Part shown: positions 58,739 to 60,704 of the stretch, one piece after another
Layout of the letters: every line of letters starts with the position of its first letter
Numbering within the stretch: the first letter of the stretch is position 1
Assembly (NCBI RefSeq): GCF_024502345.1
Contig: NZ_JALDNN010000001.1
Source of the DNA: Escherichia coli
Lineage (GTDB): Bacteria > Pseudomonadota > Gammaproteobacteria > Enterobacterales > Enterobacteriaceae
DNA: 64,000 nucleotides
Reading direction: 5' to 3' (one strand)
Position numbers and translations under genes: made by a program
The notes under the pieces: generated by a model
The model's database searches: none
What the model was told of the DNA's origin: nothing
The model's input: only the letters and a program-made list of their open reading frames with translations

Positions 58739-60133
58739 GTGTATTCAGTAAACCAGTTGGTTATCTCGGGCTGCAAACGGCAATGGATCCTGATGGACAC
58801 GGAAACCTCTATGCCGTTGCTGTATCCCCTTAGGTACCATATTGACCATTTAGCTTTCCGCTCATTGTCCACGCAGTCAGCTTCACTGCAATCTGTGAAG
58901 TTTTTTTACGAATTCTGGAATCAAAAGTATGGTGTCTCGTTTTGCTACAGCTTCTATTCATCTGGCCACAATCCAGACATCGCCGTCAGCGAAATGCCCG
59001 CATTTTGGCTGTATCTGGAAAATGGCCACAACGTCCAGTCAAATGTGTTGTCTTTAACAAGAGCCACCAAAGCCAGTAGCTTAACTCACGCAGCCAGAGT
59101 TCGTGCCGTGATTCATTTTCTTTCTTTTTTGATTAACACTTACATATCACCCGCATACCGGGACGACACGCCCAAAGCATTAACCCTTTTGGCCTCGCGT
59201 CTACACACCCGTTTGCAGCTTTGTCGGGATAATTATCGAACGCTTACACCAAACAAATTTTCGCTACGTAGTCACAACAGCCAGGGGTTTCAGAGTCTGT
59301 CTGGTGCAATGGTGCTCAGCCTGTATGGGATAATAGCCCCCTCTTCTGCCCAAAAGCATAATCCACTAAACCCTTTCCCTTCCGGACATCTTCAGTTCCG
59401 CAATTTTTTAATTATTCGCCTGTTATTAAATTATGGTTTACGAATAGGTGAGCTATTGTTGTTAGAGTGCAGTTCAATCAAACCAAATTTAAGAGGTGAT
59501 AAATTCAGTTTGATTGTGACAACTGTCGATGGGGGGTACGAACCAAGAAAAAATGCGCCGTCTCTCAAAAATGCATGGGCTAACCGTGTATTAGAACTCG
59601 ACAAGCAAGATTATATTTATTTAAGTATTTATATAGAAAAAATCCGGCCCAAAACACATAAGCACGATTTCATCTTTATATCGAGTCAACAGTCAAGAAA
59701 ACCATTGTCCTATACATCAGTTCATTCTATTTTTTCGAAAGTCGATAAGGTCTTTACTGATCAACACCCAGAGTACAAATCGCCCTTGTACTCTGATTCG
59801 TTGCAACGATTGACACCACATACAACCCGACATACTTGGGCCTTTTTGACATTGCAAAGAATATGGCATTCAAAATATTTGAGAAATCAGCTAAACAAAA
59901 CACACTTTGTTGCTGGAGTCCCTTCCCTCACAGGAGTAATGGAAGAAGCAAAAGATGAGCTACGGCTGATTGGAGGATGGAGCCCGACTAGTCAAATGCC
60001 TGATCTATATGCAAAACGCTTCCTTTCTGAGCAGGCTAATACTGCCAATATCCAACGTATTATTCAAGATAATGCTGCGCTGCAGAATACGTTAAATACA
60101 ATAATGGATAAATATAACGATGAGTTCATTTGA
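58739..60133 (+). CDS. tyrosine site-specific recombinase (phage-integrase family) with long divergent N-terminal region
   Basis: 464-aa ORF (GTG start at 58739; ATG alternative at 58793); catalytic-core motifs GLRIGELLLLECSSI (box I Arg), HTTRHTWAF (HxxR), LIGGWSP...LYAK (Tyr nucleophile region). Confidence 0.7.
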   Translation: MYSVNQLVISGCKRQWILMDTETSMPLLYPLRYHIDHLAFRSLSTQSASLQSVKFFYEFWNQKYGVSFCYSFYSSGHNPDIAVSEMPAFWLYLENGHNVQSNVLSLTRATKASSLTHAARVRAVIHFLSFLINTYISPAYRDDTPKALTLLASRLHTRLQLCRDNYRTLTPNKFSLRSHNSQGFQSLSGAMVLSLYGIIAPSSAQKHNPLNPFPSGHLQFRNFLIIRLLLNYGLRIGELLLLECSSIKPNLRGDKFSLIVTTVDGGYEPRKNAPSLKNAWANRVLELDKQDYIYLSIYIEKIRPKTHKHDFIFISSQQSRKPLSYTSVHSIFSKVDKVFTDQHPEYKSPLYSDSLQRLTPHTTRHTWAFLTLQRIWHSKYLRNQLNKTHFVAGVPSLTGVMEEAKDELRLIGGWSPTSQMPDLYAKRFLSEQANTANIQRIIQDNAALQNTLNTIMDKYNDEFI

Positions 60134-60308
60134 ACATACACTAAAATTTGATGAAGAGAGTTCAATTTACCCTGCTGATTTAGCTCAGGCAATCATTGAA
60201 CTTAAGGTTCCTGAGCGGATTTATCTAAAGACGGCTGTGGGGTTTGATGATAAATACATAATTAATAAAGGGAGCAAATGGACTTTTGATTACTCTGGTA
60301 GTCGGTGA
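60120..60308 (+). CDS. hypothetical 62-aa protein, translationally coupled to the recombinase gene (14-nt overlap)
   Basis: ORF only; no recognisable motif; coding status unverified. Confidence 0.3.
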   Translation: MSSFEHTLKFDEESSIYPADLAQAIIELKVPERIYLKTAVGFDDKYIINKGSKWTFDYSGSR

Positions 60309-60404
60309 TACCTTGTTTTTAATCAAGATAACATCTCAAATAAGCTAAACAAATATATTTGTTTCAAATATGCATCGACAAGATTCCCAACCAGGCTTCC
60401 AGCG

Positions 60405-60704
60405 TTGCATCTTGACTGGAGAAAAGCCATCACATATTGCCGGGAATATGGCGGATTTTCGTTTAGTACGCTCCGACTATTTATAGAAAGAGATAACATT
60501 GACAATGCTGTTTTTTATTCTGTGTTGTTCGGGTTAAAAATACTTTGTTCTGAAGCATTCCCGGGTTTCAGTCTTGAAGATTATGATGATCTGGAGTTCG
60601 TCCCTCGACCGCATCTCGATCGTTGGGGAGTTTATCAGGAAATCGATAATGTTCTTGATCCTCTCGAAAAAAATATGATTTGTAATGGGCTGTGGCTTTG
60701 TTGA
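60405..60704 (+). CDS. hypothetical protein, 3' end truncated or replaced by IS903 insertion (reading frame terminates inside the IS inverted repeat)
   Basis: 99-aa ORF whose last codons (..GLWLC) are encoded by IS903 IR starting at 60694. Confidence 0.3.
   Translation: MHLDWRKAITYCREYGGFSFSTLRLFIERDNIDNAVFYSVLFGLKILCSEAFPGFSLEDYDDLEFVPRPHLDRWGVYQEIDNVLDPLEKNMICNGLWLC

Follow-up and report, generated by a model that had tools for sequence, protein, structure and literature searches.

Directly downstream of hipBA, a 64,000-nt stretch of Escherichia coli DNA (RefSeq assembly GCF_024502345.1, contig NZ_JALDNN010000001.1; hereafter the window) carries a tyrosine recombinase gene, ginA, and the 5' part of a second recombinase gene, ginB, which very probably constitute the decayed left end of a GInt-type island (Genomic Island with three Integrases, Tn6571 family) that had inserted at the outer margin of the XerD-binding arm of dif, where chromosome dimers are resolved. 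The feature, which an initial annotation made from the sequence alone had singled out and in part misread, is real and is a decayed copy of a known kind of mobile island. GInts combine a ginABCD operon at the left end with variable cargo, a short AT-rich right end and 10–17-nt imperfect direct repeats, and those of Pseudomonas need all four gin genes for both excision and integration (Bardaji 2017, PMC5385486); they are told apart from the elements called SEs by gene order and protein clusters, and are found in 7.5% of Escherichia replicons (Idola 2023, PMC10214605). The remnant comprises the following features:

58568–58595, plus strand: chromosomal dif, GGTGCGCATAA-TGTATA-TTATGTTAAAT (XerC arm, centre, XerD arm); intact, host-owned and on the host side of attL.
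58589–58597, plus strand: attL crossover core GTTAAATCA, 9 bp, made up of the outermost 7 nt of the XerD arm followed by CA, and repeated at attR in intact relatives.
58598–58738, plus strand: non-coding left end of the element, with two family-conserved motifs.
58739–60133, plus strand: ginA-like tyrosine recombinase gene with a GTG start, 464 amino acids (aa), apparently intact.
60120–60693, plus strand: ginB-like recombinase pseudogene, of which 191 codons out of ~521 survive from the 5' end; it has a premature TGA (60306–60308) and is truncated by insertion sequence IS903.
60694–61751, plus strand: IS903 copy C, which ends the element remnant; its transposase is frameshifted, and its inverted repeats are flanked by ATGGGCTGT and CCTGCTGGA.

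Junctions of the element with dif

The 28-mer at 58568–58595, GGTGCGCATAATGTATATTATGTTAAAT, occurs once in the window and is identical to the experimentally confirmed dif of E. coli (PMC3025954). K-12, which has no recombinase at this position, as the initial annotation stated, carries the same dif sequence in a precise empty site, whose attB reads ...ATTATGTTAAATCA continued by TGTCTGAG. In both the window and CH423, a genome with an intact island at the same position, attL reads ...GTTAAATCA continued by CCTAC, with element DNA beginning at window position 58598, exactly where identity to CH423 falls from 100% to ~89%. The attR of CH423, the single intact genome from which this site was defined, reads ...CAACATAAGTTAAATCA continued by TGTCTGAG, and the reconstructed attP reads ...CAACATAAGTTAAATCACCTAC...; the direct repeat of CH423, TA[T/A]GTTAAATCA, is imperfect, with 11/12 nt matching. 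Comparative genomics downstream of hipA, which the initial annotation had proposed, defined boundaries and repeats from K-12 and CH423. The statement that the window shows neither att repeats nor cargo holds for cargo and attR, both absent, and fails for the att site, the attL core being present where it overlaps the outer end of dif.

The gin operon begins 141 bp from attL. Two motifs in this left end, AATAAGTTCAT (58610–58620) and ATAAATCAATACGTTAG (58640–58656), are conserved among otherwise diverged left ends of the family (eight members aligned) and may represent recombinase-binding repeats. Both also resemble the right-end core ATAAGTTAAAT. A promoter scan of the spacer between attL and ginA returned nothing above chance. 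At the opposite extremity of the CH423 island, the last 127 bp are 72% A+T and finish ...ATAAGTTAAATCA.

Association of the lineage with dif

Few non-coding sequences in Proteobacteria are as well conserved as dif. The XerD arm is the most conserved part of this highly conserved site (PMC2731167), and it is the XerD arm of an intact dif that the element abuts in 13 of the 14 family loci examined (E. coli, Yersinia, Enterobacter, Acinetobacter and metagenomes; the window plus loci L001, L006–L008, L010, L011, L017–L020, L050 and L067 of our set), without exception on one side and in one orientation, reading away from dif. At the fourteenth, L009, a lambdoid prophage provides the target, the dif-like sequence GGTGCGGGTAA-CAGTCA-TTATGTTAAATCA, and the break again follows GTTAAAT. 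No dif lies near the loci of the type found in E. coli Sakai, the published E. coli GInt used for comparison below.

An exact 23-mer, GCATAATGTATATTATGTTAAAT, stands upstream of ginA in 11 loci of different hosts, and a scan of one genome per species found it, with unrelated flanks, in Gamma- and Betaproteobacteria belonging to at least 120 species; of the 105 loci whose flanks could be used, 103 had no ginA downstream, and its neighbours shared no gene family. This spread and the absence of ginA ruled out an element-borne terminal repeat that had left a scar in K-12: the 23-mer is dif. Left flanks that looked alike had also pointed to a conserved linkage of hipA and dif in other genera, an idea discarded after tblastn searches of other species detected hipA nowhere near dif.

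The position invites the explanation that the host XerC and XerD integrated the element, as they do for the elements termed IMEXs (CTXphi, VGJphi, TLCphi and the gonococcal genetic island), with the encoded recombinases serving another role. Like IMEXs, the element lies exactly at the chromosome dimer resolution site and leaves a functional dif; foreign DNA is known to enter chromosomes at dif (PMC2731167), and the ATAAGTTAAAT contained in the reconstructed attP matches the XerD arm at 9/11 positions. IMEXs, however, encode no recombinase, use XerCD and exchange strands at the dif centre, whereas the hipA-side element has its own conserved operon with two catalytically complete recombinases next to attL, and neither a dif-like attP nor a crossover at the dif centre is found. 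The crossover lies outside the 6-bp centre of Xer strand exchange, in the 7 outermost nt of the XerD arm and 2 nt that flank it; the secondary insertion in the prophage likewise breaks after GTTAAAT, and attP and attR have no equivalent of the XerC arm (1/11 matches in attR) or of the centre. A crossover in the outer XerD arm, together with an attR devoid of XerC arm and centre, argues against canonical Xer integration, which we consider very unlikely here, and for the element's own recombinases as the probable drivers.

Further observations concern other DNA at dif and dif-like sites. The dif-like site of the prophage sits between the terminase and portal genes (L024, ~2085–2115, in an unoccupied prophage; L009, ~9880–9910); a sister GInt is inserted exactly at this site in one draft assembly, and such an insertion was seen in no complete E. 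coli genome. In E. coli G4/9 (L025, ~3000–3090), a relic consisting of 75 bp of the sister-subfamily left end lies between two ...ATAGTTAAAT right-end cores beside a different island, an arrangement suggesting that elements have accumulated in tandem and decayed at the edge of dif. The XerC-arm side is occupied in several Enterobacterales (L007, L010, L048, L050, L105 and L129), where an IS481-like gene (minus strand, 465 aa) terminates ~100 bp short of dif, and in L007 the junction lies 5 nt from dif; a second kind of element seems to use this side.

Gene content and orthology of the operon

An allele ~89% identical to that of the window occupies the same hipA-side position in 87 of 5426 complete E. 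coli genomes. In CH423 (L001), hipBA is followed by integrase genes of 446 and 521 aa, genes for hypothetical proteins of 788 and 144 aa, two helix-turn-helix genes and cargo, in which PADLOC recognized Gabija (GajA, E 4e-240; GajB, E 1e-193), Avs2 and PDC-S50. CH423 has other cargo than 39EVA and L009–L011, and no phage genes were found in intact relatives at the hipA-adjacent site. The same four-gene module is present in a second E. coli subfamily (55% identity), in Acinetobacter guillouiae and in viral and metagenome contigs, encoding proteins of 400–488 (A), 437–565 (B), 543–805 (C) and 125–152 (D) aa. The ginB product of the intact relative matches integrase models of both Pfam and NCBIfam, and searches of the third and fourth proteins against the same collections gave nothing significant.

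This organization corresponds to that of described GInts (Bardaji 2017, PMC5385486; Idola 2023, PMC10214605). Four co-oriented, overlapping genes form an operon at the extreme left (5') end; the first two encode tyrosine recombinases with complete catalytic sets (ginB surviving in the window only as a 191-codon pseudogene), the third a large recombinase-related protein (present in CH423, its gene missing from the window) and the fourth a small protein, after which come variable cargo and a right end that is short and AT-rich. Imperfect direct repeats in the 10–17-nt range bound this tripartite structure in CH423, only the left third of which survives in the window, and the element shares with GInts a strict site specificity for a conserved host sequence.

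Sequence comparison relates the individual proteins to an E. coli GInt. Two genes of the Sakai strain, ECs_3510 and ECs_3509, appear as ginC and ginD orthologues in the PSI-BLAST list that forms Additional file 10 of Idola 2023 (PMC10214605). Against this locus, BLAST with the hipA-adjacent family gave 28% identity for A (E 4e-16), 24% for B (E 2e-8) and 27% for C (E 9e-9), and hhalign, run on small alignments harvested from the loci, scored the like pairs at 99.7% (A–A; E 3.5e-27, residues 2–417), 98.3% (B–B; E 1.9e-14) and 99.1% (C–C; E 4e-19), with E values of at least 7e-4 for all the cross pairs A–B, A–C and B–C. When the C–C comparison was repeated with 24 sequences on each side, pitting the family of the 788-aa CH423 protein against that of Sakai ECs_3510, the match rose to 100% (E 2.5e-88) over 643 columns. 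By these comparisons, genes A, B and C are position-specific orthologues of those of the published E. coli GInt. The 125–152-aa open reading frame (ORF) that follows the third gene in every locus matches GinD in position and size only. The suggestion that the recombinase marks the integrase end of an integrative element is thus borne out, this being the attL-proximal end of a multi-recombinase island; its role, which the initial annotation had left open as that of a possible module of unknown function, is most readily that of a GInt-type recombination operon, truncated and inactive in this copy.

Several points weigh against the assignment to GInts. The fourth protein has no detectable similarity to Sakai-type GinD (BLAST E 2.1; hhalign E 0.017), a predicted helix-loop-helix protein in described GInts. 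The tie to the experimentally studied Pseudomonas islands is indirect, running only through the published PSI-BLAST orthologue list. The literature describes GinC as devoid of catalytic residues, whereas R/K/HxxRH/Y-type residues persist in both enterobacterial families of GinC-like proteins, with invariant R..E, K, HxxRH and Y at tyrosine-recombinase catalytic positions; in addition, the hipA-adjacent family has a cluster of four invariant C-terminal cysteines, of which one is invariant and three are nearly invariant in the Sakai type. The attR sequence comes from one intact genome, whose island also carries IS1 and IS3 insertions. The element further differs from described GInts in its target, the edge of dif rather than an ABC-transporter gene, ssb, a ribonucleotide reductase gene or an HU gene, and from the Sakai type in proteins that are only ~24–28% identical; the window copy differs as well in being truncated and an immobile remnant.

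Other families that pair two or three tyrosine recombinases with a small protein and insert at specific targets, namely SEs, Tn554-like elements, RIT trios and GMT islands, resemble the element to this extent, SEs and Tn554 being moreover non-conjugative and possibly sharing a copy-out style of movement with it. A faint NCBIfam match of the second recombinase to GmtY (E 0.0019) recalls the GMT islands and scores far under the family cut-off (17.5 versus 340 bits). SEs are arranged intA-tfp-intB-srap, in contrast to the int-int-large-small order found here, and nothing in Tn554 corresponds to the large third protein, which is a full-length homologue of the published GinC orthologue. Neither the 13–19-bp imperfect terminal inverted repeats of SEs nor the terminal inverted repeats and 6-bp footprints of SEs and Tn554 in general are seen in the hipA-side element, the longest inverted match between its ends being 8 nt. 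On gene order, protein families, the lack of terminal inverted repeats and weak scores, membership in any of these families is most improbable. A lambda- or P4-type prophage integrase was rejected on the multi-gene recombinase operon, the phage-free intact relatives and the absence of a match to a phage-integrase N-terminal domain.

The ginA recombinase

The claim of a 464-aa ORF with tyrosine-recombinase motifs directly downstream of hipBA stands. The protein contains GLRIGELLLLE, PHTTRHTWAF and GGWSPTSQMPDLYAKR, keeps the catalytic set R235/K277/H361/R364/H365/W414/Y424 and presents every residue that is invariant in the family. Its start codon is ambiguous: the GTG at 58739 is preceded by GAGG 8 nt upstream and agrees with many homologues of 462–465 aa, and the ATG at 58793 would give the 446-aa product that RefSeq annotates in relatives.

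The profile search suggested by the initial annotation found weak integrase matches only among Pfam, NCBIfam and PDB sequences, with Phage_integrase as the sole Pfam match (residues 218–373, E=1.4e-7), a sub-threshold match to XerA in NCBIfam and no phage-integrase N-terminal domain in either collection. The family is large, and its full-length conservation extends down to ~36% identity. The first ~230 residues, said to resemble nothing nameable, do find a counterpart: in the hhalign comparison with the Sakai type, the protein aligns with GinA from residue 2, that is, over its full length. In an AlphaFold model built on 48 sequences (mean pLDDT, the model's own confidence score, 82), the first ~200 residues are predicted to be a core-binding domain that is enlarged, entirely helical and furnished with two disordered loops, and not a new fold.

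Between the window and CH423 alleles, the ratio of nonsynonymous to synonymous substitution rates (dN/dS) of ginA is 0.145, with values of 0.17 for the N-terminal and 0.13 for the catalytic half. Decay within ginA was sought in the three differences that separate the window from L007, a metagenome scaffold, and was not apparent, W60 and Y70 being the family-conserved residues in the window and V53 falling in a variable column.

Decay of the window copy

The two small ORFs reported downstream of ginA, 60120..60308 and 60405..60704, share one reading frame and, aligned to the intact 521-aa gene of CH423, form a single truncated ginB, interrupted by a CGA>TGA change at 60306–60308 where intact relatives have CGA. 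The 14-nt overlap with ginA (60120–60133) and the interruption by IS903 had been recognized correctly; the existence of two separate ORFs and an end at 60704 had not, as the junction lies at 60693/60694, marked by the inverted repeat GGCTTTGTTGAATAAATC, and the final 11 nt of the 99-aa ORF are IS903 sequence. RefSeq annotates IS903B in the homologous match. Copy C has no target-site duplication and therefore marks an IS-mediated deletion or a recombination between IS copies, which removed the 3' end of ginB, ginC, ginD, the cargo and attR.

The part of the locus left in the window accordingly comprises dif, attL, ginA and the start of ginB alone, with neither attR nor its yneL flank. None of the 5426 complete E. 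coli genomes showed the truncated configuration. Over window positions 58563–60693, the identity to L007 is 99.8%; the scaffold has an arginine codon at 60306 and continues beyond 60693, and the damage is therefore recent. Since ginC, ginD and attR are gone and all four gin genes are essential in Pseudomonas, we infer that the remnant can neither excise nor move.

Could ginA nevertheless have been retained as a working solo recombinase, for instance domesticated for a function at dif or close by? It is full length with all family-invariant residues, lies 143 bp from dif and has the low dN/dS given above. That ratio, however, reflects divergence between functional elements rather than evolution after the truncation, the near-identity to the untruncated L007 implies recent decay, the configuration is missing from the complete genomes, and a single gin gene is insufficient in the GInts tested; retention is hardly credible. 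The window ginA is most likely a recent leftover of the GInt-type island, not a working gene, as the 99.8% identity to L007 best suggests.

Surroundings of the remnant

The host genes flanking dif lie outside the element and were delimited from ORFs and from the way RefSeq annotates the collinear loci in CH423 and K-12:

56903–57169, plus strand: hipB.
57169–58491, plus strand: hipA.

Both stand directly upstream of ginA; dif follows hipA at ~80 bp, and the 3' flank of hipA is identical to K-12 and CH423.

Compared with the other two IS903 copies of the window, A (48836–49892, plus strand) and B (52247–53303, minus strand), copy C has a 1-bp indel at 60949/60950 that frameshifts its transposase into ORFs 60726–60959 and 60856–61695. 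Copies A and B form an inverted pair whose 9-bp flanks are mutually reverse-complementary (GCTGGCTTG/CAAGCCAGC and ACACCTAAG/CTTAGGTGT), the signature of intramolecular replicative transposition with inversion. An ECSE_1600-type autotransporter gene is split by this inversion, with its 3' part at 53304–56694 and its 5' part inverted at ~49862–51793.

To the right of copy C, positions 61752–64000 contain an IS110-family transposase fragment and a RelE/ParE-HTH pair (63262–63865). This DNA is 99.9–100% identical to ~300-kb E. coli plasmids and to the chromosome of VREC0864, where it lies beside gadC', digH and dosC, a match that suggests a large IS-mediated replacement in the terminus region.

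Proposed route of integration and decay

Taken with the intact relatives, these data suggest the following course, in which the anatomy, the junctions, the orthology of A, B and C and the dif association are direct observations; how recombination proceeds, the need for all four genes and the functional loss are inferences. A complete island would comprise the overlapping operon for ginA-like, ginB-like, 788-aa GinC-like and 144-aa proteins, then anti-phage cargo and the AT-rich right end. By analogy with the tested Pseudomonas GInts, the operon products, conceivably all four of them, would recombine attP with attB through a crossover within GTTAAAT(CA), leaving an intact dif at attL and only a 9–12-nt partial repeat at attR. 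The window copy would later have lost the 3' end of ginB, ginC, ginD, the cargo and attR through the IS903 event, and ginB would have acquired its nonsense codon.

We tentatively put forward, as plausible rather than probable, that the recombinases of this GInt lineage evolved to recognize the outermost XerD arm and to integrate without damaging dif. On this view, dif would offer defence islands an almost universal place to land safely, in Enterobacterales and Acinetobacter as well as in further Gamma- and Betaproteobacteria. In a stronger version of this proposal, XerD bound at dif may be a landmark for the element recombinases or act as their cofactor. Nothing in the literature searched, a limited library that is no proof of novelty, described GInts at dif or a dif-edge target; the association of the lineage with dif is its notable aspect and is possibly unreported.

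Implications

For the window itself, the meaning is mainly one of annotation: an orphan atypical integrase and two small ORFs become a dead GInt stump beside dif. The comparative value lies in a defence-carrying GInt lineage (Gabija and Avs in E. coli) that in several genera always borders dif on its XerD side. In Hochhauser 2023 (PMC10121019), the hipA/ydeT interval is defence-island hotspot #20, occupied in 62/783 genomes, and GInts carry defence systems at several E. coli hotspots; the main text of that paper, which was not searched for dif, does not mention hipA. The hipA-side islands share with hotspot #20 the chromosomal position, a similar occupancy (87/5426 for the present allele) and, in intact relatives, a cargo of Gabija, Avs and other defence systems. 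A GInt lineage at the dif edge would explain why this interval is a defence-island hotspot.

The finding also raises the question of how a foreign recombinase operon coexists with XerCD and FtsK at the terminus, and of what effect islands there have on dimer resolution. Finally, targeting of the dif edge suggests an attB of broad host range.

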